DNA of 64,000 bases from Gemmatimonadales bacterium (GTDB lineage: Bacteria > Gemmatimonadota > Gemmatimonadetes > Gemmatimonadales > GWC2-71-9): the NCBI GenBank assembly GCA_965249575.1, contig OZ252244.1, positions 142,612 through 206,611 of the forward strand, read 5' to 3'. Numbering within the stretch: the first letter of the stretch is position 1; every line of letters starts with the position of its first letter. The notes under the pieces were generated by a model. That model saw nothing but the letters and a program-made list of their open reading frames with translations, made no database searches and had not been told where the DNA came from. Positions 18,981 through 46,547 of this stretch are shown here, piece after piece. Both the position numbers and the translations under genes were made by a program.

Positions 18981-19004
18981 GCGCCCGAGGTTATGAGGTA
19001 GTTA

Positions 19005-23061: not shown

Positions 23062-23970
23062 ATGCCTTCGGAATTACTCGTCTACGTCAACGGCCAACTG
23101 GTTCCCCGCTCCGAGGCACACGTGTCCGTATTCGACGCGGGCTTTCAGTCCGGGGATGGGATATGGGAAGGCCTCCGGATCTACCACGGTCGGGTGTTCG
23201 AGTTGGACGCTCACATGAATCGCCTGTATGACTCCGCCAAGGCGCTGTCCATGGAGGTGCCGCTCTCGAGGCCGGAGCTGGACGATGCCCTGTGCGAGAC
23301 ACTTCGAGCGAACGAGCTATATCACGACGCGCATGTCAGACTCATGGTGAGCCGCGGAGAGCGACGCACCTCGGGCATGGATCCCACGTTCGTCGAAGGG
23401 CGCCCGGGCACTGTCGTAATCATCGCGGAGCACAAGCCGCCGATATTCGACAAGAACGGCGTGCGGCTCGTGGCGTCGAGCGTGCGCCGCCCGTCACCCG
23501 ACACCCTGGATCCCCGGATACACCACGCCAACCAGTTGAATTCCATCCTCGCCAAACTCGAGGCGAACCGCGCCCAAGTCGACGGCGCGATCATGCTCGA
23601 CCGGAACGACTTCGTCGCTGAGTCCGACGCGGCAAATCTCTTCATCGCGAAGGAGGACGAGCTGGCAACCCCCAATGCGACGGCCTGCTTGCACGGCATC
23701 ACTCGTGGCCTCGTCATCCAGGAGGCGCGCAGCGCTGGCATTCCGATTCTCGAGCGGGATGTCTCGCTACTCGAAGTGCACACCGCAGACGAGGTGTTCC
23801 TCACGGGAACCATCGGCGAGATCGTTCCGGTCATCGAGGTAGACGGCCGTACCATCGGCGCGGGCGCGCCGGGCCCGATGACACTTCGCCTCGCAGACCG
23901 CTATCGGACGCTTACCGACCAGACCGGCGTCCCGATCCCCGGCGTGACTGCGGCGCGCGGTCGCTCGTGA
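23062..23970 (+). CDS. Class IV aminotransferase (branched-chain / D-amino-acid aminotransferase or aminodeoxychorismate-lyase family)
   Basis: ATG 23062. VSVFDAGFQSGDGIWEGLRIYHG and EVFLTGTIGEIVPVIEVDGR are fold-type IV PLP enzyme patterns. Confidence 0.85.
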   Translation: MPSELLVYVNGQLVPRSEAHVSVFDAGFQSGDGIWEGLRIYHGRVFELDAHMNRLYDSAKALSMEVPLSRPELDDALCETLRANELYHDAHVRLMVSRGERRTSGMDPTFVEGRPGTVVIIAEHKPPIFDKNGVRLVASSVRRPSPDTLDPRIHHANQLNSILAKLEANRAQVDGAIMLDRNDFVAESDAANLFIAKEDELATPNATACLHGITRGLVIQEARSAGIPILERDVSLLEVHTADEVFLTGTIGEIVPVIEVDGRTIGAGAPGPMTLRLADRYRTLTDQTGVPIPGVTAARGRS

Positions 23971-25316: not shown

Positions 25317-26116
25317 CGGCCGGAGTAACGCGGCTCGCGCTTCTCGACGAACGACCGCAGGCCCTCCGCGGCGTCCTCGCTCGCGAGACACTCCATGAGA
25401 GCATCGACCTCGAGCTGCAGTGCACCCTCGAGGTCGAGCTGCTGCGCTCGCAAGAGTCCCCGCTTGAGCAGTCGCACGGAGATCGGTGCGTTCGCGCCGA
25501 TGGTGCGGGCCACCTCGGTCGCCGTGGACAACAGGTTCTCGGGAGCGACGACCTCGCTCACGAGCCCCAGGTCGCGCGCCTCGGCCGCCGCGACGTTCCT
25601 CCCAGTGAGCAGGAGCTCGAAGGCGCGGCCGTAGCCGATCAACTTCGGGAGCAGGAAGAGCACTCCGTTCGTCACGAAGAGCCCTCGTTTCACCTCCGCG
25701 AACGAGAACGTTGCGTTGCTCGAAGCGATACGAACGTCGCACACGATGCTCAGCTCGATTCCGAAACCGGTGGCAATCCCGTTTACCGCCGCAATCACCG
25801 GCTTTGCGTCGTCCACAACCCGTCGTGTGATCTCCTGCACCCGCAGGACCCGCTCCCGCCACCGCTCGACGGAGGCCTCGCCCGTGAGGAGCTGCGCCGC
25901 TTCCTTCAGATCCTCGCCCGCGGAAAACGCCCGCCCGGAGCCGGTAAGCACCAATGCGCCAGCGCTCTCATCATCCCGAAACCGATCGAGCACGTCGAGG
26001 AGCTCACGGTAAGTAGAGTCCCGGAACGCATTCAAGCGTTCGGGCCGGCTAAAGGTCGCCACGGCGACCCCGTCGGACGTCGCGTAACGGATGTCGTTGA
26101 GTTCCACGGAGCTCAA
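25313..26116 (-). CDS. Enoyl-CoA hydratase/isomerase (crotonase) family protein
   Basis: 267 aa. VLTGSGRAFSAGEDL and PVIAAVNGIATGFGIELS are oxyanion-hole motifs. TTG start at 26116. Confidence 0.9.
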   Translation of the reverse strand: MSSVELNDIRYATSDGVAVATFSRPERLNAFRDSTYRELLDVLDRFRDDESAGALVLTGSGRAFSAGEDLKEAAQLLTGEASVERWRERVLRVQEITRRVVDDAKPVIAAVNGIATGFGIELSIVCDVRIASSNATFSFAEVKRGLFVTNGVLFLLPKLIGYGRAFELLLTGRNVAAAEARDLGLVSEVVAPENLLSTATEVARTIGANAPISVRLLKRGLLRAQQLDLEGALQLEVDALMECLASEDAAEGLRSFVEKREPRYSGR

Positions 26117-26247
26117 TTCCGTCCCCCCCCCGGCGCGATAGGCCTAATGCACGGGTGCTTCTACCGGGTAGCCGATCGTTTCGCAGTACCCGACGTGCGA
26201 GCCCCCAGTGATCGTCCGTAATCCCGAACGCCGGAGGATAGTGACTT

Positions 26248-28674: not shown

Positions 28675-28897
28675 TTGAAGAAGGGTCGGGCGCGGAGCTT
28701 GTCCGTCGGTTGGGGCGCGGGCGCTACAAAACGACCGCGGCTTCATTCTGGCATTCGCGATCCCATCCGTCGATCAGGTAATCGCTTAGAGGACTGTCAC
28801 TTACCGCTCTCGACGGGGCTCGAAACTTGCGCATCACACCCACATCCTTCCCGAACTCACACGCAGGACCGAATACCGCCGTTCCCAGGAGCAACCA

Positions 28898-29905
28898 ATG
28901 AGGCGACGATTCGTTTGGTACTTGCCCGTAGCGACCGCGCTGCTATTCGCGAGCTGCGCCGATCGCGACCAGTCCTCGCCGACCGAGCCACCGTCGTTCT
29001 CCGTGGCCCCCCACAGCGGGGCCGCCGCTTCAGACGTCCGGGATATCCAGGCGCAGATCAGGGCGCTCTTCCCGAGGGACGACCGTGGGCTTCAGCACGC
29101 GGCGCTCAAGCGGTTCCGCAATATCGTGCGAGCACTACGGCGGGGTCGAGTGGAAAGCGCTCGGCGAAAGACGGTTCGATTCGTCGATTTCACGCTCCGT
29201 AAGTTCCAGCAGGAGCGGCTCCTAGATCCCAACGGGGCCGAACCCCCAACCACCGAGGAAGCAGTCTGTACGCTGATCGCATCGATGCTCCACCTCGTCG
29301 GACTTCCCAGCCCCGCGGCCTGCCCACTCGGACCCAATTCGGCCGCGGCCGTCGTGGGACGGAGCGGTGGTCTCGTCGTCACAGGCGCAGAGGAGGCCGG
29401 GGTCGACATTCCGCGCGGATCGCTCGAGGAAACGGTGGTGGTCACGGTTCAACTGATCTCTGGGCCATTCGATGAGAGCGGGGGTCCACTGAACACCGAG
29501 CTCGATCAGTTCGGACCGTTCTATCAAATCGAGACATTCCCTGCGGTCTCGAGCTTCAGCGGTGATGTCGTCGTCGGTTTGTGCATCGAGGAGTTGGAAG
29601 AGGGTTTCCGCCTAGCGCATAACAACGCCGAAGGAACCGGCATCGAGATCCTCCCACTCGCTGGCGCTCCCTTCCTTGACTGCAATGCCGACATCGGGAG
29701 CCGATCGATACAGGACGACGAACCGGCGACGATATGGGGCCGCGCGGTACGGCTCGCCAAACGCCTGTTCGCTCCAGCTCCTCTGCATGCTGGGAACGCC
29801 CTGATCTTCGGTGGCCTCGGCGGCTCCTCGGGCTCGTTCAGTCCATTCGGCGCGGTGGATACTCAGGCATCCACGCCGGATGAAGGCGGTCCAGACGACT
29901 TCTAA
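28898..29905 (+). CDS. Hypothetical lipoprotein
   Basis: AGGAG lies before ATG 28898. Signal peptide with lipobox LLFASC. 335 aa of normal composition. No family recognised. Confidence 0.55.
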   Translation: MRRRFVWYLPVATALLFASCADRDQSSPTEPPSFSVAPHSGAAASDVRDIQAQIRALFPRDDRGLQHAALKRFRNIVRALRRGRVESARRKTVRFVDFTLRKFQQERLLDPNGAEPPTTEEAVCTLIASMLHLVGLPSPAACPLGPNSAAAVVGRSGGLVVTGAEEAGVDIPRGSLEETVVVTVQLISGPFDESGGPLNTELDQFGPFYQIETFPAVSSFSGDVVVGLCIEELEEGFRLAHNNAEGTGIEILPLAGAPFLDCNADIGSRSIQDDEPATIWGRAVRLAKRLFAPAPLHAGNALIFGGLGGSSGSFSPFGAVDTQASTPDEGGPDDF

Positions 29906-29929
29906 CTGACTCCGGCTTTTGTGAAAATC

Positions 29930-29973
29930 GGCCGGCTCCCGCGCGATGCGGGGGCTGGCCGCTTCTTTTTTTT
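29930..29973 (+). terminator. Rho-independent terminator, probably bidirectional
   Basis: 13-bp stem GGCCGGCTCCCGC / GCGGGGGCTGGCC (two G-U pairs), 5-nt loop, then GCTTCTTTTTTTT. On the opposite strand the stem is followed by GATTTT. It sits between the convergent genes ending at 29905 and 29990. Confidence 0.7.
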
Positions 29974-29989
29974 GCTTGCTTGGTGGCAG

Positions 29990-31651
29990 CTACGCCGCGG
30001 CGGCCGGAGCGGAGCGCTGCTCACCGTCAGGGACCAGCTTCAACTCTACGAGAAAGCGCGAGCCGGCACCCTCCTCACCCTCGACCCAGAGCCGGCCACC
30101 CAGGCCCTCGACGATGTTCTTGCTGATGGCTAACCCGAGGCCCGCTCCTCCGTGCGTCCGAGTGGCGGAGCGCTCAAGCTGCATGAACTTCTCGAAGATC
30201 ACCTCGCGCCTGTCCGCCGGAATACCTGGCCCCCGATCCGCGATTTCGACTACGGCGGACTCGTCGTCGACGCGCCATTGAACGGTCACCGGCGCGTCGG
30301 GCGGGGAGAACTTAATGCCGTTCGACAGCAGGTTCACGATCACCTGTTCCAGCGGATCGCGGGCAGCCAGCACGGTTGCCGCGCGGTCACCGTCCGACTC
30401 GATCTCCACGCCGCGATCCCGCGCGAATCCGCTCACCGCCTCTACCGCCCGGGCAACAGCCCCCTCGAGCGAGACCGGGGCCAATTCGAACTCGAAGCGT
30501 CCGCTCTGCATTCGTGACATTTGCAGCAGGTCGTCGACCAAGCGGACCAGACGGTCGAGATTGCGCAGCGCGATATCGACGAACTCCCACATCGCTCGCG
30601 GGAGGTCGCCAGCCGCCCCGTTCTTGATGAGACCCAGCGAGGTCTTGACGGACGTGAGTGGCGTACGCAACTCGTGGCTCACGATCGATACGAATTCGTC
30701 CTTTGCCTCCTCCGCCGCGGCCTCACGGGTGATATCGCGATACAAAATGAGATGACCAAGCATCGACCGCTGGTCGACGACCGGCACGACGGTTCGCTGG
30801 CAAACGGATTTCTGTGGAAAGGCGAACTCGACCCGATCCCGGAGCGGTTCCGCCTCCGCGTCGAGCGCGGCGACTTGCGACGAGAGATCGTTCGGCTCGC
30901 TCAGGCAACGGGCGAACGCCTGATTGACCTGGGCCACGGGTGATCCCATCACCACTTCCCACGGCATTCCGATCAAGTCCGCTAGCGCGCGGTTCGCATG
31001 CACGACCCTACCATCCGCGACCATGAGAATCGCCGCGTCACTCGCTTCGATCAGTGCCTTGAGCCGCGTCCGTTCGGACAGCACCTTCGCGTTCTGGAGC
31101 GCGAGCCTCTCACGCTGACTCTCGATGGTCGAGAGGAGCTTCGAGTAGTGCAGGGATGTCTCGATTTGTCGCGCGAGGAGTGCCGCAAGCTCGAGATCTT
31201 CTTGACCATACCGCTCGGACTCTTTGGAGCCGAAGTTGAGCGCGCCAATGATCTCACCGTCCACGTGAAGCGGAACGATGATGGCTGACAACGCACTCTC
31301 GTTCGGCAGCCGGATGCCCTCGGTCCCCGGAAGGTCCGGGACGAGAAGCGGCTCGCCAGTCCGAATCACCTCCCCCGTCAGCCCCTGCGCTAGCGGAAAG
31401 CGGCCCCTCCCCTCTATGAATCCATCGCGTTCAGCATCGAAGAGCGTGTGAAGTTCATAGTGATCCCCTTCCTCCGAGACCAGCGCGACGCTGGCCCGCC
31501 GGAACATCATTACCCGTTGAAGCTTGGTGATGGCCGCCTGGAAGATCTCTTCGAGATCGAACGTCGTGTTGATGAGGGTCGCGAGCTCGCCGACGACTTC
31601 CAGTCGTTCCGAAGCCATCGTGTGGCGCGTTTCCAACGCGGTCGGCATCAT
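29990..31651 (-). CDS. Cytoplasmic sensor histidine kinase (GAF - PAS - HisKA - HATPase_c)
   Basis: 553 aa. H-box SHELRTPLTS, N-box LLSNGIKFS, G-boxes DRGPGI and GGAGLGLAI. GAF-like N-terminus and no TM segment. ATGA overlap with the Hpt gene. Confidence 0.9.
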   Translation of the reverse strand: MMPTALETRHTMASERLEVVGELATLINTTFDLEEIFQAAITKLQRVMMFRRASVALVSEEGDHYELHTLFDAERDGFIEGRGRFPLAQGLTGEVIRTGEPLLVPDLPGTEGIRLPNESALSAIIVPLHVDGEIIGALNFGSKESERYGQEDLELAALLARQIETSLHYSKLLSTIESQRERLALQNAKVLSERTRLKALIEASDAAILMVADGRVVHANRALADLIGMPWEVVMGSPVAQVNQAFARCLSEPNDLSSQVAALDAEAEPLRDRVEFAFPQKSVCQRTVVPVVDQRSMLGHLILYRDITREAAAEEAKDEFVSIVSHELRTPLTSVKTSLGLIKNGAAGDLPRAMWEFVDIALRNLDRLVRLVDDLLQMSRMQSGRFEFELAPVSLEGAVARAVEAVSGFARDRGVEIESDGDRAATVLAARDPLEQVIVNLLSNGIKFSPPDAPVTVQWRVDDESAVVEIADRGPGIPADRREVIFEKFMQLERSATRTHGGAGLGLAISKNIVEGLGGRLWVEGEEGAGSRFLVELKLVPDGEQRSAPAAAA

Positions 31652-32025
31652 GAGGTCGGATCGAATCGGGACTGGTACAGCCGCACGGAAGACGCCAACC
31701 GTTCAAGACCAGCCACGCCATCGGCGAGTCCCTCGGGAGACAGTGCCCCGCCCTCCCGCCACCGCCGTCCGAGATCCTCCAGGAACGCCGCCGGCTCCGA
31801 GAGGTCGTTCGCGCCAAACGATGCCGCGGTCCCCTTCAATGAGTGCGCTCCGCGATGGAAGGTCTCGATCATTCCTTCGTCGCGGCTCTGCTCGAGCACC
31901 TCCAATGCCGAACGCATCTTCTCGACTCGGTCCGGCAACCCAGCCGCGAATTCACGCCTCACCAAGGTCAGCGGGTCGAGATCGCTCTCGATCGGGGCCT
32001 CGGGAAGTCTAGGCCTTGCTTTCAA
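31648..32025 (-). CDS. Stand-alone Hpt (histidine phosphotransfer) domain protein
   Basis: 125 aa with the phospho-accepting motif FHRGAHSLKGTAASFGA. TTG start overlaps the end of the upstream receiver gene by 17 nt. Confidence 0.8.
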   Translation of the reverse strand: MKARPRLPEAPIESDLDPLTLVRREFAAGLPDRVEKMRSALEVLEQSRDEGMIETFHRGAHSLKGTAASFGANDLSEPAAFLEDLGRRWREGGALSPEGLADGVAGLERLASSVRLYQSRFDPTS

Positions 32026-32380
32026 CGCACAGGTCCTTGATCCGTGTGGCGAGCTCCTCCGGCTCGAATGGCTTGAACGCGATTCCGGCAGCGCCCGCCA
32101 ACACAGCCTCTGACTCCTGCATCTCTTTGCGCGCCGTCAACAGGACGACCGGGATCGAGGTCGTCTCGGGATCTGCTCGCAGCCGACGACACACCTCGTA
32201 CCCATGCATCCCTGGCATCATCACGTCCGCGATCACCGCATCGGGCTGAACACGGCGCACGGTCTCGATCCCCTCCACTCCGTCTGCGGCAACTGCCACC
32301 TCCCATCCCGCCGTGTACTCGAGTGTCAGCTTGATCAGCTTGCGGAGATCCGGATCGTCGTCGATTACCACGACGCGCAT
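32009..32380 (-). CDS. Single-domain response regulator (REC only, 123 aa)
   Basis: ATG 32380 (MRVVVIDDDPD). Phospho-acceptor D in AVIADVMMPGMHG, then LLTARK and AFKPF. No output domain. Confidence 0.9.
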   Translation of the reverse strand: MRVVVIDDDPDLRKLIKLTLEYTAGWEVAVAADGVEGIETVRRVQPDAVIADVMMPGMHGYEVCRRLRADPETTSIPVVLLTARKEMQESEAVLAGAAGIAFKPFEPEELATRIKDLCVESKA

Positions 32381-32501
32381 AGGAGCATCCTCTCGTTTTG
32401 CCACCAATGATGAGACCTCCGGACGTTCATCTCGCACGACTGGCCCGGCGTCATCGCGACTCAGCGCTCGGTCAACTTTCACAGATCGCGCGGAACACGA
32501 A

Positions 32502-33116
32502 TCATCCGGTAACCGATGGTCCGTCCCGTTTCCCATCTCCCGCACCGGGGGCGTGCTCACCCGGGTCGATCTGAGACGCGTCCAACGGCACTGGGATGGG
32601 TGCCTCCGGCCGTCGGTCGGCACCTTGGTGACCGATGAGGCGGCCCGTGCCCACGGAGAGCAGTACCAGCAATCCCACAGCCGCTGACCGAAGTAGCCGC
32701 CGCCTGAGAGTCGGTCGGAGTCGCGCCCGCAGCCTGACGTTTGCCTGCCGAACGGCGGCATTCTCCGCCGCTCGCTCAACCGCCGCGGCCAAGTGCCCCA
32801 TGTTCACGGGCTTCGTCAAGAAATTCTCGGCGCCCAGACGCATTGCCTCGACCGCCGGGCCCAGTTCGCCGCTGGCGGTGAGCATGATGACCATTGCCCG
32901 CTTCTTCCTCAGGATCTCGAGCACTTCGAGTCCCGACATGCCGGGCATGGACAGATCGAGCACCGTCACGTCCGGTCTCGCTCGCTCGTGCAGAGCAAGA
33001 CCCTCCGACCCAGACTCCGCCTCGTAGACTCGATGTCCAAGGCGCTCGAACTCGGTCCGGAGAAGCCGGAGCATGTCCGGGTCATCGTCTATGAAAAGCA
33101 CAGTACGGGAACTCAT
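32502..33116 (-). CDS. Response-regulator receiver domain fused to a C-terminal transmembrane helix and Pro-rich tail
   Basis: ATG 33116 (MSSRTVLFIDDDPD). Has VTVLDLSMPGMSG, MLTASG and LTKPV. This is followed by RRRLLRSAAVGLLVLLSVGTGRLIG (TM) and ...PEAPIPVPLD.... No DNA-binding or enzymatic output is visible. Confidence 0.8.
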   Translation of the reverse strand: MSSRTVLFIDDDPDMLRLLRTEFERLGHRVYEAESGSEGLALHERARPDVTVLDLSMPGMSGLEVLEILRKKRAMVIMLTASGELGPAVEAMRLGAENFLTKPVNMGHLAAAVERAAENAAVRQANVRLRARLRPTLRRRLLRSAAVGLLVLLSVGTGRLIGHQGADRRPEAPIPVPLDASQIDPGEHAPGAGDGKRDGPSVTG

Positions 33117-33360
33117 GGATCCCTCCCCTAGGCACCGCCTGATGTTATCGGCCGCCGGACAGCGCTTCTTGAGGATGGAGGGGCGCATTTCTCCCACCAC
33201 TCAGAACGGGGAATCGAGACACTAGACGATTTCCAGAAGTGATGACGCGGCAAGCACTTAGAGTATACGGGAACCGCGTGATGGCGCGCGGGTCTCCAGG
33301 GAGGGCCCCGGAGACGTTCGGGTCTGCCTTCTTGGACGGAGAGCTGCTACGGCGTTAGCG

Positions 33361-34440
33361 TCAGTTGCCTCGCAAGTGGCGCACGAGCATGTCCCCCATC
33401 GCCGACGTCGCGATGCCGCTTCGAGCGTCAGCCGATGGCACCTCGCCACTGCGAAGCAGAGAGGCCGTCGCCTCTTCTATGCGCTGGGCGGCCGCCGTTT
33501 CGCCGAGGAAGTCCAGCATCATGCCCGTGGCCGCCGTTGCGCCGAGAGGACAGGCGATATTCTTACCCGCGTGTTTCGGTGCGGACCCGTGGATCGGCTC
33601 GAACATCGACGTCTTCCCGGGGTGGATGTTACCCGACGCGGCGATGCCCATCCCGCCCTGGAGCATCGCGCCGAGGTCGGTGATGATGTCCCCGAACAGA
33701 TTCGTCGTAACGATTACGTCGAACCATTCCGGATTCTTGATCATCCACATGCAGCAGGCGTCTATATAGGCGTGGTCGGTTTCAATGTCCGGGAAGTCCT
33801 CGGCCACGTGGCGGTGGGCGCGGGTCCAGATGTCGTGGGGTCGGATTGCGTTCGCCTTGTCCACAAGGGTGACCTGGCGCTTTCCGGCGTCACGCCCTTC
33901 TCCGGCACGTCTTCGCGCCAGCTCGAAGGCATAGCGCACCGCCCGTTCGCACCCCTTCCACGTGTAAACGCCGTTGACGATTGCGACTTCGTCCGCGGTA
34001 CCCTTCTTCAAGTGCCCGCCGATCTGTGAATACATTCCCTCGGTGTTCTCACGGACGACGACGAAATCGATGTCGTCCGGTTTCTTGTTCTTGAGAGGAC
34101 ACAGGTGCTCGGAGTACAGTCGTATCGGGCGCAGGTTGATGTAGAGATCGAGCCCAAACCGGAGCCCGAGGATGACTGAACGCTCTACGAGCCCTGGCTC
34201 CACGTCCGGATGCCCGATCGCGCCGAGTAGTACGGCGTCGAGTGTCCGCCATTCATCGATGACGGATTCGGGCACGAGCTCCTTGGTCTTGAGATAGTAC
34301 TCCCCGCTGTAAGGGTAGTCGACCAGCTGGTATCGAAACCCCTCGAGGTCGGCCGCGGCCTCCAGCACCTTCAGGGCTTCACGCGTAACCTCCGGCCCGA
34401 TCCCGTCCCCCGGTAGAACACCGATGGAATAGTCCTTCAT
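33361..34440 (-). CDS. Isocitrate/isopropylmalate dehydrogenase family oxidoreductase (tartrate/D-malate dehydrogenase-like)
   Basis: 359 aa with GDGIGPEV, VRENTEGMY and NLFGDIITDLGA motifs of the beta-decarboxylating dehydrogenases. The N-terminal region resembles the tartrate dehydrogenase subfamily. Confidence 0.85.
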   Translation of the reverse strand: MKDYSIGVLPGDGIGPEVTREALKVLEAAADLEGFRYQLVDYPYSGEYYLKTKELVPESVIDEWRTLDAVLLGAIGHPDVEPGLVERSVILGLRFGLDLYINLRPIRLYSEHLCPLKNKKPDDIDFVVVRENTEGMYSQIGGHLKKGTADEVAIVNGVYTWKGCERAVRYAFELARRRAGEGRDAGKRQVTLVDKANAIRPHDIWTRAHRHVAEDFPDIETDHAYIDACCMWMIKNPEWFDVIVTTNLFGDIITDLGAMLQGGMGIAASGNIHPGKTSMFEPIHGSAPKHAGKNIACPLGATAATGMMLDFLGETAAAQRIEEATASLLRSGEVPSADARSGIATSAMGDMLVRHLRGN

Positions 34441-37869: not shown

Positions 37870-38889
37870 GTGAACGACCTCCAACCACGCGCCGCGACGG
37901 GCGGCCGTAGCAACCGTGCAACAGGCTTCCGGGCACGCCGTTCCCGGCTTCACGCCGGGGCGGCTGCCCTGGTCCTGCTCGCCGGAGGCACGCTATTCTC
38001 CCCAGAACGGGCACGCGCGCAGAACTCCCCTGAAGAATTGATCCTCGAAGTCAGCAGAGCACGGGACCTCGCGGTGCTCGCCCTCGAGGACCTCGTGGGG
38101 CCCGTCGGACTGATGCTCTTGCGCATCGGCCCTTCGAGCGCCTTTGCTTCGGACCCCCGGGGCCTCGGCCATGGCTCGCTCACGTTCGGAGCGGTGGCCG
38201 GCGCGCTGACGCTCACGAGCCCGGACTATACCGACGCCGATCCCGCCGGAGGAGACCGAATCGACGCCGCTGTCGGCTCAGTCAACACGGACATTACCAT
38301 CGGGCTCGCCTCGGGCCGAGCGATCGGACGCCTGGAAGGGGTCGGTAGTGTAGACGTCCTGCTACGACTCGGGTACACCCTTGGGGACCAAGACGACATC
38401 GCCGATAACGTCGATGTTGGCAGCCTCAAGTCCATCCTTGGAGCCGGACTGCGCATCGGAGTACTCAAGGGTGAAGGACTCCCGGCGGTATCGCTGGCGG
38501 GAGGGTTCAACGTCCTCCGGCGCCGAACGTTCAACGTGCGCGGGACGGCTTCGAACAACGGCGCCACCAAGCCGTTCGTAATCGCCCTCGAGCTCGAGCA
38601 GACAACCGCGTTTGCGATAGCCGAGATCGCAAAGCGACTCGGGTTCGTCACGCCGTTCGCCGCCTTTGGCGTCGCCGGTCACACCTTCGAATCACATTAC
38701 GACTCCGAGGTCGTTTATGACGCGACGTCGAACAGCGTCATCGTGAGCGACGACGTCGAGATCAAGCGTACGTCCGGCATCGCACTCGCTGGACTCGAGT
38801 TCGGCGCCGCTCCCGCTGGCATCGTGCTGGAAGGCGGGACAGCTGGTGGGGAAGCCTTTGGAGCCTTTTATATCCGCTTCCGGCGATGA
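37870..38889 (+). CDS. Hypothetical secreted protein, possibly beta-barrel-like (start uncertain)
   Basis: The frame of track ORF 37663.. has plausible protein composition only after about 37870 (GTG). Signal-like RRSRLHAGAAALVLLAGGTLF...ARAQ. Gly/Ala-rich alternating strands. No family assigned. Confidence 0.5.
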   Translation: MNDLQPRAATGGRSNRATGFRARRSRLHAGAAALVLLAGGTLFSPERARAQNSPEELILEVSRARDLAVLALEDLVGPVGLMLLRIGPSSAFASDPRGLGHGSLTFGAVAGALTLTSPDYTDADPAGGDRIDAAVGSVNTDITIGLASGRAIGRLEGVGSVDVLLRLGYTLGDQDDIADNVDVGSLKSILGAGLRIGVLKGEGLPAVSLAGGFNVLRRRTFNVRGTASNNGATKPFVIALELEQTTAFAIAEIAKRLGFVTPFAAFGVAGHTFESHYDSEVVYDATSNSVIVSDDVEIKRTSGIALAGLEFGAAPAGIVLEGGTAGGEAFGAFYIRFRR

Positions 38890-38902
38890 CGAAGAGCTAA
38901 CA

Positions 38903-39838
38903 ATGTTCGGTCCGACCAACTCCCCAATTCGGCGCGGTGCGCTCTTCGGCCCAATGACCGCGGGCCTGCTCCTCGCGTGCTCCTCCACAACGACTGGGCC
39001 GGGTCAGCGTGACATCGTGCTGACGGCGCGCCTGGTGGCCGGGCAGGCCAGCGTGGTGCCGTGCGCAACCGCACAACAGTTCGTCCAGGACTTTGCGAAC
39101 GTTTCGGCGCGCGTGGATGTCCTGTCCGTGAGCGAAGGCCCGTTCTTCAAGCAGCAGGACCTCGCGGTCCGCCAGGCAGGCGCCCCGGACATCGTCCAGC
39201 TCATTGGTGACGTTAGCTTCCCCGTGCTCTCCGGCCGTGGCCCGTTCCTCGTGAGCGTCGCGCTGGGATACCAGGGCGACGAGGTAGAGGGACAGTTCGC
39301 CGGCTTTCTCCAGCTCGAGTCGGGGATCGGCATCACGATCGAATCGTTGACCATTCCCACACTGATCCCCCAGACCGACGGCACGCTGATGACGACCAAC
39401 GCCGTCCTCTGCGTTTCGTCAGACGCGGTCGAGCAGGGCCGGACGTTCTGCACGACGGACTCCGACATCGACAGCCAGAACCTGATCTACGACCCCGTCG
39501 CGAACCGTTTCACCTACTCCTACCGCCGGCAGAACATCGATTGGCAGGACCAGGGATTCCGCACCGTCGTCTTCGAGCTGGACGGGAAACTGGACCCGGC
39601 GGACATCTACCGCGGCTCCGCACAGATCACAGGCGGGATCGGCCAGCTCGCGGATCTCCAGATCGACGTCCAACCCGTCATCGACGGGGGCCCCGGGGGC
39701 TTGGGCGAAGGTATATCGGGAGACGTGCTCGTCCACTTCGAGGACGGTCGCGGCCCGACCGAGGGGGGAAGCTTCTCCCTGGCTCGGACCCAGCGCCTCG
39801 CGTGCAATCCTTTGGAGATGTTGGCCGCCCGTCGTTAG
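38903..39838 (+). CDS. Hypothetical lipoprotein
   Basis: ATG 38903 lies 14 nt after the previous stop. Lipobox LLLACSS. 311 aa. Confidence 0.55.
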   Translation: MFGPTNSPIRRGALFGPMTAGLLLACSSTTTGPGQRDIVLTARLVAGQASVVPCATAQQFVQDFANVSARVDVLSVSEGPFFKQQDLAVRQAGAPDIVQLIGDVSFPVLSGRGPFLVSVALGYQGDEVEGQFAGFLQLESGIGITIESLTIPTLIPQTDGTLMTTNAVLCVSSDAVEQGRTFCTTDSDIDSQNLIYDPVANRFTYSYRRQNIDWQDQGFRTVVFELDGKLDPADIYRGSAQITGGIGQLADLQIDVQPVIDGGPGGLGEGISGDVLVHFEDGRGPTEGGSFSLARTQRLACNPLEMLAARR

Positions 39839-40026
39839 CGCCGCTGCAGGTCAAAGCCGACCCTACCTGATTACCACGACGGTGCATGCCGCTGCGCGTT
39901 GCGCTGACTCAGCCGCTCGACCGGTCGTCGTGGGCCCTCTGCGTCCGCTCCGAGAACCACGTTCCCCAGCCCAGGAGCGGCCATCGGGACTAGGATCGGG
40001 TTGTTCGCTCGCTGGACGTCACCGCA

Positions 40027-40809
40027 TCAAAACGTGAGCTGCAGGTGCACTCCTCCGTGTCGGCGGCCCGCAAACGGCGTAATACTCAGCCGACCCTCAC
40101 CGCCGCCCGATTCGGACGCGAAACGAGACACCGTCCGGCCGACCACGTACCCCAACACCCCGCCGGCGACGATGTCCGAGAAGAAATGTTCGTTGTCTTC
40201 CACACGGCTCACGGCGATGTACGTGGCCACGAGCGTCGCGGGTATCCCCACTTCGGGACCGAAGTGACGTGTCAAAACCGTTGCCCAGGTGAACGCGGTC
40301 GACGTGTGCCCCGAGGGGAACGAACGGGAATTTGTGCTATCGGGTCGCTGGCGGCCAAAGGAGCGTTTGAAGATTCCCGTGAGGGCGCCGTTGATGACCA
40401 ACCCTTGGGCGAGGTCGAAGGTGACCCGGCGAAAGCGGCCCGCGGGAGCGATCTGCCCGGCCGCGAACAGCCCCAGGGTGCCTCCTGTGACAACGAGCCC
40501 GTGGCCGATCGCATCGCCAAGGTCGCCCACTCCCTCGACGCGATCAGCGAGCGCGCCCTGCACCTCATGGTCGAACGGTCGGGCGGTGAGGGTCAAACCG
40601 GTGCCCGCGAGGAACGGGGCGAGGTTGCCGAGGGAGGCCAGGGCCACGGTACTCGACGCCAGGGCTCCAGGAAACGAAGCAATGATGTGGGGCGCTGCCC
40701 GGACATTTAGTGAATCGAGTGCGGCGCGGCTATCAGGTGATTGAATCTGCTGCGCAGCGCTGAGTGCGGGCGCAACGCAGAGCAGCAGGGACAATGCGAT
40801 CCGGATCAT
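40027..40809 (-). CDS. PAP2-superfamily phosphatase (secreted or membrane-associated)
   Basis: Signal peptide MIRIALSLLLCVAPALSAAQ. PAP2 motifs KRSFGRQRP, SFPSGHTS and SRVEDNEHFFSDIVAG. Confidence 0.8.
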   Translation of the reverse strand: MIRIALSLLLCVAPALSAAQQIQSPDSRAALDSLNVRAAPHIIASFPGALASSTVALASLGNLAPFLAGTGLTLTARPFDHEVQGALADRVEGVGDLGDAIGHGLVVTGGTLGLFAAGQIAPAGRFRRVTFDLAQGLVINGALTGIFKRSFGRQRPDSTNSRSFPSGHTSTAFTWATVLTRHFGPEVGIPATLVATYIAVSRVEDNEHFFSDIVAGGVLGYVVGRTVSRFASESGGGEGRLSITPFAGRRHGGVHLQLTF

Positions 40810-40929: not shown

Positions 40930-40951
40930 TCAATCGCTTAGGCCAATACAA

Positions 40952-41038
40952 GGACAGGTGGCCGAGTGGCTGAAGGCACGCGCCTGGAGAGCGCGTGAGC
41001 GGGGAACCGTTCCGTGGGTTCGAATCCCACCCTGTCCG
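40952..41038 (+). tRNA. tRNA-Ser (anticodon GGA)
   Basis: Folded by hand. Acceptor GGACAGG/CCTGTCC, anticodon stem CGCGC/GCGCG with loop CTGGAGA, long variable arm, and T arm GTGGG-TTCGAAT-CCCAC. Confidence 0.95.
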
Positions 41039-41039
41039 T

Positions 41040-41072
41040 GAGGGTAGTAAATAGTGAGTAGCGGGTGGCGAA
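41040..41072 (+). repeat. Left copy of a 33-nt imperfect direct repeat (GAGGGTAGTAAATAGTGAGTAGCGGGTGGCGAA)
   Basis: Manual alignment with 43529-43561 gives 28/33 identical, and the last 16 nt are identical. It begins 2 nt after the tRNA-Ser 3' end and has stop codons in all three forward frames. Confidence 0.6.
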
Positions 41073-41205
41073 GTTGGTAGTCGTTAGACGGTGCGATGGA
41101 GCTGGGGGAGTCGTGTAGGTCCGGACGCGTTGGCACCGCCGGGCGCGTTCCGCCCCAGGGGGCGTCAGCTCTTGGAACAGTGAACTCGGAAAGGATCAGC
41201 GTTTT

Positions 41206-42519
41206 TTGAATACAGGAACCGTGGCTCTGTGTACCATTGCCGTCCTGACCGCGGCCGTCGTTGGTCCGGCCGCGGCACAACTCGACCGCATTCCTCCAGA
41301 GGTCCCTCTCCAGGGCGAGAATGGTCTCTACGTGGCAGAGCGCGACGACACCGTGCGGGTCCATTGGATCACGCAATACCCCGAGGCGGGACTGCTGGAG
41401 GTGTGGGTCTCGGATTCCCTGGTCCAATCGGCCATGACGGATTCTGGGCGGGCGCATTCGACCGCCATCACCAACCGAGCCGCGGCGGAGCTTCTGCTGC
41501 GGTACGGCGGTAAGCGCCACACGACCGACCGACACAACACCGTCCTTTCGCTCGAACCGCGGCCCAAACGGGCCGAGTCCGTCGTCAAGCGGGCAGACTC
41601 CATTTACGTGCTCGGCGACGTCCACGGCCAGTTCGAATCGCTCGTCACCCTCCTCGAGAACGCCAAAGTCATCGACGGCGATCACCGGTGGACGGGGGGG
41701 AAGGCACATGTGGTCTTCCTCGGTGATCTGTTCGACCGCGGTAACGATGTCGTCCGGACATTGTGGTTCATCTACCGCCTCGAGCGCGAGGCTCGCAAGC
41801 AAGGCGGCGCCATTCACGTCGTACTCGGCAATCACGAGATCATGACGTTTCTGTATGACCACCGGTACGTGGCGCCGAAGGAAGAGCTCGTGGCCCTATT
41901 CCATGGCACCCGCTACGGCACGATGTTCAATGTCGAAGAGTCGGTGCTGGGGCGGTGGCTTGCCTCCAAGCCCGGAATCCTGAAGATCGAGGACATCGTC
42001 TTTGCGCACGGTGGTGTCACCCCGACGTACGCACACTTCGACGTCGAGGAATACAACGACTCCTTATATCGATATCTGTACGACCCCATGTTCCTCGATC
42101 TGCTCAGCGAAGATCCAGCCGTTGTTGCGCGATACGACTCGCTTCAGTTTCTGCAGCGGCTCGCTTTTTTCTTCTATGACGGAACTCCATTCTGGTATCG
42201 CGGTTATGTCCAGGGCCAGCAGAGCGATACTATGGACATGGCAAAGAGCGAGACCGTCGTCATGCAGGCGCGCGAGCACGACACGCTCCGGCTACAGCTC
42301 GACTACGTGCTCGACCGGTATGACGCCCGGCTGCATGTGGTCGCCCACACGCCGGTCGAATCGGTGGCGCCCCGTTTCGGAGGCAAGCTCGTCGCCGTCG
42401 ATCTGCTCAAACCCGCGACGGAAATGCTCCTGCTGGTTCGCGACAGGAAAAAGCGACGGCGCTATCGGATCGATTCGGATGGCAACGTCACTGAATTGAA
42501 AGCCGAGCGGATTTCCTAA
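41206..42519 (+). CDS. Secreted PPP-family metallophosphoesterase (Ser/Thr-phosphatase / Shelph-like)
   Basis: Signal peptide VALCTIAVLTAAVVGPAAAQ. Motifs VLGDVHG, FLGDLFDRGND, LGNHE, AHGG and VVAHTP. TTG 41206 or GTG 41221 start. TAATG coupling to the next gene. Confidence 0.8.
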   Translation: MNTGTVALCTIAVLTAAVVGPAAAQLDRIPPEVPLQGENGLYVAERDDTVRVHWITQYPEAGLLEVWVSDSLVQSAMTDSGRAHSTAITNRAAAELLLRYGGKRHTTDRHNTVLSLEPRPKRAESVVKRADSIYVLGDVHGQFESLVTLLENAKVIDGDHRWTGGKAHVVFLGDLFDRGNDVVRTLWFIYRLEREARKQGGAIHVVLGNHEIMTFLYDHRYVAPKEELVALFHGTRYGTMFNVEESVLGRWLASKPGILKIEDIVFAHGGVTPTYAHFDVEEYNDSLYRYLYDPMFLDLLSEDPAVVARYDSLQFLQRLAFFFYDGTPFWYRGYVQGQQSDTMDMAKSETVVMQAREHDTLRLQLDYVLDRYDARLHVVAHTPVESVAPRFGGKLVAVDLLKPATEMLLLVRDRKKRRRYRIDSDGNVTELKAERIS

Positions 42520-43550
42520 TGGCCACGCGCGTAGCGGAGCCGCCAAGACTCACCGAGATCTCGTTGGTCGTCATCGCCGCCGTCGCGATCGCGGCAGCCA
42601 TCGCATACACCCGCCCGGTCATGGTTCCCTTCGTCCTGGCGGTGTTCATCGCCTACGCGGTTTCGCCCCTCGTGGACCTCGCCCAGGACCGGTTTCGGAT
42701 TCCGAGGGCCGTGTCGATCGTATTTGCCCTGGCCGTGGCCATCGGTCTCCTCACCCTCCTGGTGCTACTGATCAGCACGTCCACGGAGCGCATCCTCGCG
42801 TCCGCGAATATCTACCGAGACCGACTCGCGTCAATCGCGCAGAAGGTCTTCGCGGTACTCGACCGGTTGGGTATCGATTTGGGCCAGCAGCCGCTGCTAC
42901 GGGGCCTGGAGGAGCTTCCCCTCGCAAGCATGGTCCGGGGCACGGCGGGAACCGTCGTCGGCCTGCTGACGACCGGAGGCCTCGTCGCGATTTTTGTCGT
43001 GTACCTCTTGGCCGGGAGGCGGCCGGCCGAGCTGCGGACGGGCTTCTATGCCGAGATCGACGCCAAGGTCCAGCGATACATCGTGACCAAGGTCGCCGTG
43101 TCGGCAACGACGGGAATGCTGGTTGGCCTCATCTTGTGGTTATTCGGGCTAGAACTGGCCCTGGTGTTCGGCGTCGCCGCCTTCTTGCTGAACTTCATTC
43201 CATCAGTCGGATCGATAGTCGCCACGCTCCTGCCGCTTCCGATAGCATTGATCCAATACGAATCCATCTGGCCGATTATCGGCGTGCTGGCACTCCCGGG
43301 CGCCGTGCAAATCACCATCGGCAACGGCGTCGAACCGATTCTCTTGGGCGAAAGCCTGGACCTGCACCCGGTGGTGGTGCTGCTCGCCCTCATTTTCTGG
43401 GGGATGCTCTGGGGAGTCGTCGGCATGCTGCTGGCCGCGCCGATCACCGCCATACTTCGCATCGTGCTGGCCCGCATCGAAACCACGCGGCCGGTAGCAG
43501 AGATCTTGGCCGGGAGACTTCCGGCGGGGAGGGTAACGAGTAGTCAGTAG
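42519..43550 (+). CDS. AI-2E family transporter (PerM/UPF0118)
   Basis: 343 aa with about 8 TM segments. FLLNFIPSVGSIVA and LLGESLDLHPVVVLLALIFWGMLWGVVGMLLAAPI are typical AI-2E blocks. Confidence 0.85.
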   Translation: MATRVAEPPRLTEISLVVIAAVAIAAAIAYTRPVMVPFVLAVFIAYAVSPLVDLAQDRFRIPRAVSIVFALAVAIGLLTLLVLLISTSTERILASANIYRDRLASIAQKVFAVLDRLGIDLGQQPLLRGLEELPLASMVRGTAGTVVGLLTTGGLVAIFVVYLLAGRRPAELRTGFYAEIDAKVQRYIVTKVAVSATTGMLVGLILWLFGLELALVFGVAAFLLNFIPSVGSIVATLLPLPIALIQYESIWPIIGVLALPGAVQITIGNGVEPILLGESLDLHPVVVLLALIFWGMLWGVVGMLLAAPITAILRIVLARIETTRPVAEILAGRLPAGRVTSSQ

Positions 43551-43561
43551 CGGGTGGCGAA
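43529..43561 (+). repeat. Right copy of the 33-nt imperfect direct repeat (GAGGGTAACGAGTAGTCAGTAGCGGGTGGCGAA)
   Basis: Covers the last 7 codons plus the stop of the AI-2E gene and the 11 nt beyond. In the same register the left copy reads RVVNSE-stop against RVTSSQ-stop here. Confidence 0.6.
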
Positions 43562-43571
43562 CAGAAGTGCT

Positions 43572-44111
43572 CTAGGTTCCCGTCTGCACCCATTGCGCGG
43601 CGTGTTGAACGAGTTGAGCCGCGCTGCCCAACTGCATCTTCTTCTTGATGTGCTCCCGATGAGATTCAATAGTCTTCACGCTGAGCGTGAGCTCGGAGGC
43701 AATCCCCCGTGTGGTGCGGCCAAGTCCTATGAGCCGGAAGACCTCGAGCTCGCGATCGCTCAGCGTGTCCACCGGTGATTGCGGAGCCTCATCTGCGCCA
43801 TCCACGACGCGGCGTAGCAGTCGTGACTGTATTCTGGGGCTCACGTACAGCTCCCCACTCATGACCCGGCGAATGGCCGTCAGGACGTTCTGCGACGCCT
43901 CCTGTTTCATGATGTAGCCGTGGGCTCCCGCTCGCAGCGCCCGCTCCGCGTAGACGTCTTCGCTGTGCATCGAGAGCACGAGCATCGGTAGGTCCGCCCA
44001 CCGGGCTTTCACTCGCTTGATTAGCTCGAGGCCGTCGGCTCCCTCCAACGCGATATCCACGATTAACACGCCGGGGGACGCGTCCTCGAGTGCCCGCATT
44101 GCCTCCTCCAC
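43572..44111 (-). CDS. NarL/FixJ-type (LuxR HTH) response regulator, N-terminally truncated receiver
   Basis: HTH block LSDRELEVFRLIGLGRTTRGIASELTLSVKTIESHR. The receiver retains the acceptor region VLIVDIALEGADG, LSMH and YIMK. It lacks beta1/alpha1 with the acidic DD pair. Receiver-homologous sequence (REGLAQLIGQSTDLSVSGEAG) continues upstream without any start codon, into the 3' end of the kinase ORF. Confidence 0.75.
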   Translation of the reverse strand: MEEAMRALEDASPGVLIVDIALEGADGLELIKRVKARWADLPMLVLSMHSEDVYAERALRAGAHGYIMKQEASQNVLTAIRRVMSGELYVSPRIQSRLLRRVVDGADEAPQSPVDTLSDRELEVFRLIGLGRTTRGIASELTLSVKTIESHREHIKKKMQLGSAAQLVQHAAQWVQTGT

Positions 44112-44121
44112 CGTACCAGCC

Positions 44122-45840
44122 TCACCTGAAACGGAAAGGTCGGTACTCTGGCCAATGAGCTGCGCGAGCCCCTCCCGCCGCGGCGCCCTCGATCACGACG
44201 CGGGTCGGGCGCGCGTGCTTTACGGCGTTGGTTACAGCCTCGCTGACGATATGGTAGAGGTGGTGGGCGACCCCCACATCGGTTACGGCAACGGCCTGGC
44301 TCACCTGGCAGGCACACGAAATACCAAACATCCCCTCGGTGTGGGCCGCGAGTTCCCCGAGGGCCTCGGCCAGGCTGCCGGTGTCGAGCGCCAGGAGATG
44401 CAGTCCCCGCGCCAAACTGCGCACGTCGGAGATCGCCCCGTCGATGAGGTCAGCGATTCTCAAGACATCTTTTCCGGACTGCGAGCCGACATCCAGTCTC
44501 TCAGCCAGCGCCCGCGAAAAAAAGGCGATTCCAGTCAACCGCTGTCCCAGCCCGTCATGAAGATCTTGACCGATCCGACGTTGCTCGCGGACGCCCGCGC
44601 TCAGAATCTCCCGCTCCAGGCGTCGGCGCCATGTTACGTCCCGCGCGATCCCGTGGTAACCAATCACCTCGCCGTTCTTCGAGCGCCACAACGTCGACGT
44701 GATGACGCAGTCGATCTCCACACCGTCCCGGCGACGAAGCTTCACGTCATAGTCCCGCACAGCTCCCTGCCGCATCATGATTTCTTGCAATCGTTCTCGA
44801 TCTCGCGGGTCGACGTAGGAGTCTCTGACGTTCAGACGAAGCATCTCTTCGCGCGTGTAGCCAAGTAGGTCCAACGTCGCATCGTTGCAGTCCATCACCT
44901 GCCCGCCTGGGGTGGTGACGTAGACCGCGTCCTGTGATCCCTCAAAGAGGCTTCGGTAGCGCTGCTCACTCTGCCGCAGGGCTTCCTGGGCCAACCTGCG
45001 CCCGGTGATGTCTCGCGCAATCCCTACGACCCTTGCGTCCCCGCTCCCATCCTCGACGGTGAGCCCGCTCTCATGCATCCACCCAATGGATCCGTCGGGC
45101 CGAACGACCCGATACTCCTCGTCGAACCCAACCGAGTTCCGAGCCCGCTCATAAGCCTGGTGCATTCGCGGCGAATCGTCCGGATGAACGGTGTGGGCCC
45201 ACGTCGCGTCGGTCTCTCCGTTTCCCCCCTGAGTGCCCGTAGGCTCGGAGGGCGGGGAGCTCTGGTAGGCACGCCGTCGACCCTCCGCATCCATCACCCA
45301 GAACACGGCATCAACGTTTTCTGCGAGCCGCCGGAGGCACCGCTCGTTGTCCCTGAGCGCCGCTTCCGCCTCGTGCCGGAATGTTGTGTCCCGCACGAGG
45401 GCCGTAACCTCGTCGGGGCCGCTCGCCACAATCCGAGCCTCGCGGTACCGCGTCCCCTTCGGCGTGAGGAGTCGATACTCCACTGTCTGCGGAGCGCCCG
45501 TCTGCAGCGCCTTCTCGTTCGCGACTTCCAGCCGCTCAACGACGTCGGAGGGCAGTATGTCCCGGATGTTCCGACCGACGATTTGATTCGTTGGGATGAT
45601 CCCCGGAAACTCGATTGCTCGATTTGCGGCGAGGTAGGTTCCGTCCCCCGTACACCGCACGACGAGGTCCGGCACTATCGAGAGGGCACTCTGGTATCGG
45701 CGATCCGCCGCCTGCAGTGACCGCTGCAGATCATCACGTGCGACCGCCACTCGCTCTAGCTCCTTCACGCGTCGACGCAACCGAGCCACCTCCTGGTGGA
45801 GTCGCTCGTGGGCGGCATAAGACGCTCGTTGGGGAATCAC
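44122..45840 (-). CDS. Multi-PAS sensor histidine kinase (HisKA_3 type), C-terminally truncated within HATPase_c
   Basis: Coiled coil plus about three PAS-like modules. H-box RIGQDLHDGLGQRL and N-box SEAVTNAVKHA are present. The ORF then ends 26 codons later with no DxGxG or GxGxG ATP-lid motifs. Start is provisional at GTG 45840. The track start at 46275 overlaps tadA. Confidence 0.75.
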   Translation of the reverse strand: MIPQRASYAAHERLHQEVARLRRRVKELERVAVARDDLQRSLQAADRRYQSALSIVPDLVVRCTGDGTYLAANRAIEFPGIIPTNQIVGRNIRDILPSDVVERLEVANEKALQTGAPQTVEYRLLTPKGTRYREARIVASGPDEVTALVRDTTFRHEAEAALRDNERCLRRLAENVDAVFWVMDAEGRRRAYQSSPPSEPTGTQGGNGETDATWAHTVHPDDSPRMHQAYERARNSVGFDEEYRVVRPDGSIGWMHESGLTVEDGSGDARVVGIARDITGRRLAQEALRQSEQRYRSLFEGSQDAVYVTTPGGQVMDCNDATLDLLGYTREEMLRLNVRDSYVDPRDRERLQEIMMRQGAVRDYDVKLRRRDGVEIDCVITSTLWRSKNGEVIGYHGIARDVTWRRRLEREILSAGVREQRRIGQDLHDGLGQRLTGIAFFSRALAERLDVGSQSGKDVLRIADLIDGAISDVRSLARGLHLLALDTGSLAEALGELAAHTEGMFGISCACQVSQAVAVTDVGVAHHLYHIVSEAVTNAVKHARPTRVVIEGAAAGGARAAHWPEYRPFRFR

Positions 45841-46043
45841 GGGGCGTTTCCACTGCGCGCGCGGGCGATGTGGCGCATGGACGGCTGTTGGATCGGGATC
45901 GCGCCGTCCCCGTGCACCGGTGCCAGAACTGGGCGTCCCTTGTCCAAGAGTCCCTGGTCTCTGTCGGTGACTCGACAAACCTAGGACATGGGACGGACGG
46001 CCGCTAGCGAGTTGTTCGGCGGTCCCGAGCGAGGGGTGTTCGC

Positions 46044-46547
46044 CTACGGCGTGGGATCGTTGCCCCGCCGTCCACGTTTCGGCTCGAAGAACTCCCGCAG
46101 CAGCTCCGCGCACTCTTGCTCCATCACCCCACCCCGCACTTCCGGCGAGTGATTGAGCACCGGATGGCGCAGAAGGTCCCCGACGCTTCCTCCCATGCCG
46201 GTCTTGGGTTCGTACGCGCCGAACACGACCCGGCCGACGCGGGCGAGAACGGCTGCACCGGCACACTGCGCACACGGTTCGACCGTCACGTAGAGAATGC
46301 CGTCCGTCAGCCGGTCGACACCGAGCGTTTTGAGCGCCGACCGTATCGCGGTCAGCTCGGCATGCCGGGTCAGGTCACGCTCCGCCACGGTCTCGTTGTG
46401 TGCGGTGGCGACGACCTGATCGCCAACCACTACGGCGGCTCCGATTGGTACTTCGCCGGTTGCCGCGCCGCACCGCGCCGCCTGGATGGCTGCCCGCATC
46501 CCCAGCTGGTCGACAGCGGTCGGCTTGGGACCCCTAGGCGCCGACAC
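46044..46547 (-). CDS. tadA: tRNA adenosine(34) deaminase
   Basis: HAELTAIR and PCAQCAGA zinc-binding motifs of the CDA fold. GTG 46547 overlaps the clpB end, and ATG 46499 is an alternative start. Confidence 0.9.

Follow-up and report, generated by a model that had tools for sequence, protein, structure and literature searches.

Atypical composition is common in genomic islands located at tRNA genes (tDNA islands), but it is not obligatory. Integrative elements can reportedly also persist as cis-mobilizable elements (CIMEs), that is, remnants flanked by attachment (att) sites and without recombination genes of their own, as described in work on ICESt1 and ICESt3 of Streptococcus thermophilus. 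To our knowledge, very few mobile elements have been characterised in the Gemmatimonadota. Here we analyse a 64,000-nt stretch of DNA from a Gemmatimonadales bacterium (hereafter the window, with a GC content of 64.7%), in which an imperfect 33-nt direct repeat brackets a two-gene module just downstream of tRNA-Ser(GGA). We tentatively interpret the 33-mers as decayed junction repeats of an old recombination that would have placed the operon 3′ of the tRNA gene, in a slot of variable content. This is the explanation we prefer, although it falls somewhat short of being probable.

A direct repeat around one operon

The two copies of the repeat (41040–41072 and 43529–43561) are identical at 28 of 33 positions, the final 16 nt matching exactly, and have a period of 2,489 nt. 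The first-pass annotation had reported this match, its exact end and its start beside the tRNA gene, and all three held when coordinates and sequences were rechecked. The features concerned are as follows.

40952–41038, forward strand: tRNA-Ser(GGA) (ARAGORN; Rfam tRNA, 57.8 bits), with no encoded CCA
41040–41072, forward strand: left copy, GAGGGTAGTAAATAGTGAGTAGCGGGTGGCGAA, beginning 2 nt past the end of tRNA-Ser(GGA) at 41038
41073–41205, forward strand: leader of 133 nt from the left copy to the phosphoesterase start, with no terminator-like site and folding no better than shuffles
41206–42519, forward strand: calcineurin-like metallophosphoesterase, 437 aa (Pfam PF00149, E 1.1e-13)
42519–43550, forward strand: AI-2E family transporter, 343 aa (Pfam PF01594, E 1.2e-44)
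43529–43561, forward strand: right copy, GAGGGTAACGAGTAGTCAGTAGCGGGTGGCGAA, consisting of the AI-2E tail RVTSSQ, the stop codon and 11 nt

Exactly one translationally coupled operon lies between the two copies, the ATG of the AI-2E gene overlapping the TAA of the phosphoesterase gene (TAATG). These PF00149 and PF01594 genes are the only ones in the bounded segment and no tyrosine integrase is found there, which agrees with the earlier description of the module. The left copy lies 134–166 nt 5′ of the operon start. The right copy comprises the last six AI-2E codons (RVTSSQ), the TAG stop at 43548–43550 and then 11 nt, covering 11 of the 21 nt of spacer between the AI-2E gene and a convergent regulator gene; it lies at the operon 3′ end, 11 nt from the stop of the regulator gene. 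Both copies carry stop codons in all three forward frames at identical offsets (6–8, 13–15 and 20–22), and one of the five mismatches changes TAG to TAA. That the right copy forms the end of the AI-2E gene, and that both copies are closed in every forward frame, had been noted from the letters and is confirmed. Four of the mismatches are transitions (G/A, T/C, A/G and A/G) and the fifth is G/C. The homology ends sharply: when the 320-nt flanks were aligned locally with gaps, only the 33-mer was returned, with no extension beyond it. No inverted partner of the 33-mer was found, nor was any partial copy of the tRNA at the module's right end.

In a GC-rich genome, two boundary sequences that are both stop-rich and comparatively rich in AT might resemble each other by chance, with no shared origin and no function. 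Arguing for this, the similarity taken alone is only marginally more than chance. The pair is the best direct match of the window, two homologous tRNA-Ser genes aside, but its ungapped score of 41 was also reached in 6 of 80 windows of 64 kb simulated with first- and second-order Markov models, which gives a window-wide p of ~0.05–0.1. The middle of the 33-mer is of low complexity (TAG/AGT repeats), and homology is backed by no third copy and by no relative. In four of the five strains compared (see below) the copies match at 27 of 33 positions, without a long exact run, and score 36, the mean best of the simulations. Counter to this, both copies fall at gene boundaries, a subset of ~14% of the window (8.9 kb, made up of intergenic DNA and 24-nt gene ends) in which 30 shuffles gave maxima of 22–26 of 33, never more, against the real 28. 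A mismatch set with four transitions in five has P ~0.04 for unrelated sequences of such composition, and would be predicted if both had diverged from a single ancestor. The pair also encloses exactly one operon, within a demonstrably variable slot. Because both copies lie at gene boundaries, four of five mismatches are transitions and the stops share identical offsets, we consider a chance origin unlikely. The first-pass annotation had said as much; its judgement is upheld by the gene-boundary position (none of 30 shuffles above 26/33) and is marginal where similarity alone is concerned (6/80).

The AI-2E gene itself suggests how the right copy may have come to encode protein. Across 25 homologues the transporter is conserved up to ...AGRLP (TRPVAELLAGRLP) and then continues into unrelated tails of 3–17 residues, and the repeat encodes just this non-conserved C-terminal tail. 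Such a tail fits an AI-2E reading frame that would have entered a junction sequence. The first-pass suggestion that the left copy is an orphaned gene 3′ end finds no support here: the sequence past ...AGRLP is not conserved in the 25 homologues, the repeat encodes no ancestral gene end, and we rejected an orphaned AI-2E 3′ end as the source of the left copy.

Nothing in the composition of the module is a sign of recent foreign acquisition. The phosphatase gene had been described as AT-richer by eye, and its overall GC is indeed lower, but its GC at third codon positions (GC3) is 0.753 compared with a window mean of 0.752 (standard deviation 0.048, 46 open reading frames, ORFs), and that of the transporter is 0.817. 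The low GC of the phosphoesterase arises at codon position 2 (GC2 0.393), and so reflects amino-acid content. With GC3 normal in both genes, a foreign composition was rejected.

The 33-mer is not dispersed in the sequences scanned. The window holds no third copy (the runner-up match is 21–22/33), none at its other ~40 gene boundaries and none of an older kind near the deaminase end of the slot, as tandem accretion might leave. No further copies occur in 1.09 Mb of fetched loci, and a pattern with 27 fixed bases found no 33-mer in the Joint Genome Institute (JGI) metagenome contigs or in IMG/VR. A dispersed repeat of the repetitive extragenic palindromic (REP) type, which the first-pass annotation had named as a finding that would overturn its reading, was rejected because only two copies exist in these sequences, the rest of the 3.86-Mb genome lying outside the scan.

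Two copies of a functional cis element would leave a similar picture. The 33-mers could be an operator for the adjoining NarL/LuxR-type regulator, or a non-canonical 3′-end or processing signal placed after both the tRNA and the operon. The left copy is 134–166 nt upstream of the operon and the right copy stands at the operon 3′ end, 11 nt from the regulator stop; both are unchanged across strains but for one base; and the window tRNA lacks the canonical terminator that relatives have. On the minus strand the 33-mers contain TAC-rich heptamers, which may be like NarL half-sites. Several observations speak against such an element. The motif is absent from ~40 other gene boundaries, and a site between convergent 3′ ends is a poor location for an operator. 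It is unchanged although deletion or truncation has affected the two-component system of the window strain, and conservation among strains that are ~98% identical says little. There is also no RNA structure signal, the folding energies at the copies being those of shuffles (z −0.3 to +0.3). Rfam recognised the tRNA and no family at either copy, and neither copy contains a terminator-like site; a structured RNA, riboswitch or terminator was rejected on these grounds. We regard a cis-regulatory or processing role as improbable.

The variable slot 3′ of tRNA-Ser(GGA)

Beyond the module, the interval downstream of the tRNA gene continues with a two-component system and is closed by a conserved block of genes.

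43572–44111, reverse strand: NarL/LuxR-type response regulator, N-terminally truncated in the window strain and belonging to the second block of the slot (Pfam Response_reg profile positions 32–111 only, plus GerE)
44122–45855 (start approximate), reverse strand: PAS/HisKA_3 histidine kinase (Pfam), in the window strain without ATP-binding G-boxes
46044–46547, reverse strand: dCMP/cytidine deaminase, the first gene of the deaminase–ClpB–SelB–RecO backbone, which closes the slot

The backbone allows the same position to be found in related Gemmatimonadota. The deaminase is 62–68% identical in L088, L089, L097 and L101, with the same order and orientation. With ClpB as an anchor, L088 and L089 retain RecO–SelB–hypothetical–ClpB–dCMP deaminase, and tRNA-Ser(GGA) of L089 is ~5 kb away from ClpB, oriented relative to it as in the window. 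A scan with the tRNA 3′ half added 13 more loci. The tRNA gene is syntenic with the dCMP deaminase–ClpB block in L089, L097, L100 and L101, and the slots between them compare as follows.

L101: slot of 7 nt, empty
L100: slot of ~1.05 kb, one ORF
L097: slot of ~2.0 kb, an ECF-sigma-like (extracytoplasmic function sigma factor-like) ORF and other ORFs
L089: slot of 3.3 kb, a 449-aa ORF, cytochrome c and a 168-aa ORF
Window: slot of 5.0 kb (41039–46043), phosphoesterase, AI-2E, regulator and kinase

In other words, slot content is unrelated among lineages, from 7 nt to 5 kb, while the deaminase–ClpB–SelB–RecO backbone stays syntenic. The slot 3′ of tRNA-Ser(GGA) is hypervariable across related Gemmatimonadota, and it appears to gain and lose genes repeatedly in this clade. 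The first-pass annotation had suggested comparing this tRNA locus in relatives, and the comparison, with unrelated genes in slots of such different size, identifies a zone of gene gain. This variability supports insertion. None of the distant relatives, including L101 with its empty 7-nt slot, shows a single-copy state of the repeat.

By homology searches, all four slot genes are specific to the lineage of the window. The closest non-conspecific homologues of the phosphoesterase are 48–49% identical, and none of 80 loci with such homologues has an adjacent AI-2E gene, tRNA-Ser or two-component genes. The nearest AI-2E homologues (72–66% identity) stand beside proline dehydrogenase or in the neighbourhood of beta-eliminating lyase, AI-2E, NhaA and GlnRS genes. 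On this evidence, the pairing of the phosphoesterase with AI-2E is unique to this lineage. For the kinase, no colinear representative exceeds 42% identity. The window ClpB is 75–82% identical to the listed non-conspecific proteins, all source-named ones being from Gemmatimonadota. Searches for intermediate relatives through the phosphoesterase, AI-2E, ClpB synteny and kinase orthologues found none: identity jumps from 48–49% to 100% for the phosphoesterase, from 72% to 99% for AI-2E and from 82% to 99% for ClpB, and reaches at most 42% for the kinase. In a plasmid database the sole match was a 118-nt AI-2E segment in Paludisphaera.

The same comparison bears on the tRNA gene. L089 and L100 have a canonical hairpin and T-run after this tRNA and the window has none. 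Since no intrinsic terminator follows the tRNA gene in the window, read-through from the tRNA promoter into the operon is possible. CCA is never encoded by tRNA-Ser(GGA), and the base after the discriminator (41039) is T in the window and in 14 of 14 relatives (L089 and L091–L103).

Direct repeats that bracket a unit, here with a 2,489-nt period, could also remain from a local tandem duplication of the operon and its downstream sequence, most of one copy having been deleted and a 33-nt end left by the tRNA. The transition-biased divergence, which indicates common descent, would suit this history. Yet two precise events are required, and the deletion must stop 1–2 nt past the tRNA, just where the repeat begins. 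The 166-nt leader contains no further remnant of a duplication, and the lineage-specific content of the slot would be left unexplained. We consider such a duplication quite unlikely.

The two-component system beside the module has been damaged in the window strain. Compared with all four conspecific contigs, this strain has a 264-bp deletion at 44173/44174, which takes the kinase G-boxes (DDGIG...GLGI) and the regulator N-terminus (MTRTVRRKGVFLVDDHAVV). The system is probably inactive in the window strain.

Conspecific strains and 5′-side islands

Four metagenomic contigs, L001, L082, L083 and L084, are ~98% identical to the window and represent the same species. The operon and both copies of the repeat are present in all four, with no presence/absence polymorphism among the five strains, that of the window included. 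The left copy is invariant in these contigs. Each of them has GCGAGTGG as the right copy, which gives a match of 27/33 and confines the exact 16-mer to the window strain. Apart from this G/A difference, the 260 nt surrounding the right copy have no substitution. The change is unrooted: the right copy may have been converted towards the left one, or one mutation may have arisen on the other branch. Thus the exact 16-mer to which the first-pass annotation drew attention is real in the window but is not a feature of the species.

The conspecific contigs also show that the same tRNA gene is an integrase target and a hotspot, on its other side. One further feature of the window is needed here.

40948–40995, forward strand: tRNA 5′ half, the segment duplicated at the ends of the conspecific islands (blastn junctions) and unoccupied in the window

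On the 5′ side of the tRNA, L001 has an island of 6.9 kb and L084 one of 8.4 kb, each bounded by a 44–48-nt repeat that equals the tRNA 5′ half, leaving a displaced 5′ tRNA fragment in addition to the intact tRNA. The tyrosine integrase gene of the islands ends 24 nt ahead of the restored tRNA; both island ends carry AATTAGGCCCA-like arm repeats. L082 and L083 keep the integrase end and have lost the left end with the adjoining chromosome. The island coordinates are 1250–9615 in L084, 2169–9063 in L001, 4647–9746 in L083 and 8404–9746 in L082, a span of 1.3–8.4 kb. The window is an empty site for these islands. A 5′-fragment configuration is a known minority, since 159 of 3,919 tDNA islands in Islander have a 5′ fragment (PMC4383910). 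Local alignment of the 33-mer regions with the island sequences gave background scores of 16–21 only and no similarity. The 5′-side islands look active, but they do not explain the 33-nt repeat.

Their presence raises the possibility that the module is an integrase-less islet of the CIME kind that can still be mobilised, the 33-mers serving as attL and attR for a recombinase supplied in trans from elsewhere. Direct repeats with an exact core around a small cargo beside a tRNA, together with integrase-bearing islands on the same tRNA in conspecific strains, are in its favour. However, for the island integrases the tRNA 5′ half is the core, with AATTAGGCCCA-like arms, which are unlike the 33-mer. 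The core of the 33-mer is interrupted in four of five strains, and the motif is absent from IMG/VR and the JGI metagenome contigs. Given also the host-like codon usage and the lack of presence/absence polymorphism in the five strains, we hold this to be very improbable. It is fainter still that the 33-mers are the working attL and attR of a minimal, integrase-less two-gene islet that would be excised and inserted again just 3′ of the tRNA in trans, for instance by the recombinase of the 5′-half islands of the sister strains; if they were, tRNA-Ser(GGA) would be a two-sided docking site. The first-pass notion of a recombination-competent cassette finds no backing in these strains: all five carry the module, no circular junction was seen and no integrase is apparent for the repeat. 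The module carries no recombinase, and its mobility today is not demonstrable.

Several other differences among the strains were observed around the locus. At 41011, in the variable arm of the tRNA, the window has G where the four conspecific contigs and 14 distant tRNA-Ser(GGA) loci (L089 and L091–L103) have A; the change makes an A-U pair of the variable-arm stem G-U, and the site is a little way 3′ of the stretch that the islands duplicate. On the 5′ side, window positions 37897–40447 are missing in L001, 37736–38303 in L082 and L083, and 39039–40947 in L082. These segments include two ORFs without Pfam hits and a PAP2 gene. As segments are absent in different conspecific contigs, the tRNA 5′ side is also unstable. 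L082 (5x coverage) further lacks window positions 16696–18511, 18636–21431, 23518–24910 and 25858–33367, which take in most of two paralogous Ser/Thr kinase genes; these gaps may reflect either true deletions in the strain or a collapsed assembly. A 54-nt segment at 45738–45791, near the region encoding the kinase N-terminus, is found in the window and L084 and is absent in L001, L082 and L083. The same strain split is seen for a 4-nt AGTC slippage indel at 41079–41082, 6 nt past the left copy.

Origin of the module and known systems

Looking across the entire analysis, the data show the repeat and its non-random nature, the operon inside it, the variability of the slot, fixation in the species, the absence of dispersal and a normal composition; from these we infer an insertion, its mechanism and which copy is the older. 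In our tentative reconstruction, a circular or tandem donor carried one copy of the 33-mer, and a resident copy would have been present in the tRNA trailer. A Campbell-type single crossover between the two would have left the 33-mer on both sides of the insert. The operon would have landed between the tRNA and an older regulator–kinase block. The AI-2E frame would have run from ...AGRLP into the stop-rich repeat, acquiring a short non-conserved tail and a stop codon. Vertical inheritance may have followed, with the composition of the module coming to match that of the host, since codon usage is host-like and the module is fixed in all sampled strains.

A number of observations weigh against this reconstruction. 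The module is present in all five strains, and no empty site, with the tRNA, a single copy and the regulator, was found among the relatives, of which the nearest non-conspecific ones are too distant (ClpB 82%, AI-2E 72%, phosphoesterase 48–49%). Neither the module nor the motif was found in a second genomic context. No bracketing repeats surround the inserted blocks of L097, L089 and L100. The composition is not anomalous (GC3 0.753 and 0.817), the match by itself reaches a window-wide significance of just ~0.05–0.1, and the other strains have 27/33. Since the right copy is without a tRNA fragment and the module without an integrase, the module fails the standard signature of a tRNA island (PMC4383910). 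The scar of an integrated element that the first-pass annotation had envisaged is favoured by a real repeat around one operon, by the variable slot and by integrases at the same tRNA, and is weakened by the failure to find an empty site.

If our preferred interpretation as junction repeats is correct, the locus adds a small example of cargo build-up in tRNA-adjacent slots and an example of a gene that takes its stop codon from a junction sequence. Its value is modest and descriptive, and it establishes no new principle. The more useful by-product is a map of the locus, in which tRNA-Ser(GGA) has a hypervariable slot on its 3′ side and, in sister strains, 5′-half integrase islands.

Compared with integron cassettes and their attC sites, the module is similar in that promoter-proximal genes are bounded by a repeat resembling a recombination site, and a GTTRRRY-like heptamer (GTTAGAC) occurs near the left copy. 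This heptamer is expected by chance, however, and the module has no IntI nearby and no attC-type imperfect inverted repeat or fold, and is a two-gene operon instead of a single promoterless ORF. With REP elements and miniature inverted-repeat transposable elements (MITEs) it shares a short non-coding repeat at gene boundaries. In contrast to these, the 33-mer is not a palindrome and has two copies only in 64 kb plus ~25 kb of strain-specific DNA, with none in the public contig collections scanned.

The CIMEs offer a closer parallel, in that the module is without an integrase, is flanked by direct repeats and lies by an integration hotspot, an arrangement that agrees with stepwise accretion in which the block closest to the tRNA is the newest. 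The module differs in that no recombinase is known or inferred for the 33-mer, no mobility was observed and the neighbouring islands use another site, across the tRNA; its repeats are not identical to the att core of the conspecific islands, which corresponds to window positions 40948–40995. Like the tDNA islands collected in Islander (PMC4383910), the locus has a lineage-specific block beside a tRNA, with a short imperfect direct repeat marking its limits, and conspecific strains prove this tRNA to be a target of integrases. Unlike those islands, its repeat lies wholly outside the tRNA, with no displaced tDNA fragment, and conserved AI-2E coding sequence precedes the right copy; moreover, the module has no integrase, a cargo of 2.5 kb and host-like codon usage, and is fixed in all sampled strains. 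We would therefore describe the feature, on our tentative interpretation, as a relic islet junction, which is neither a tDNA island nor a new kind of element.

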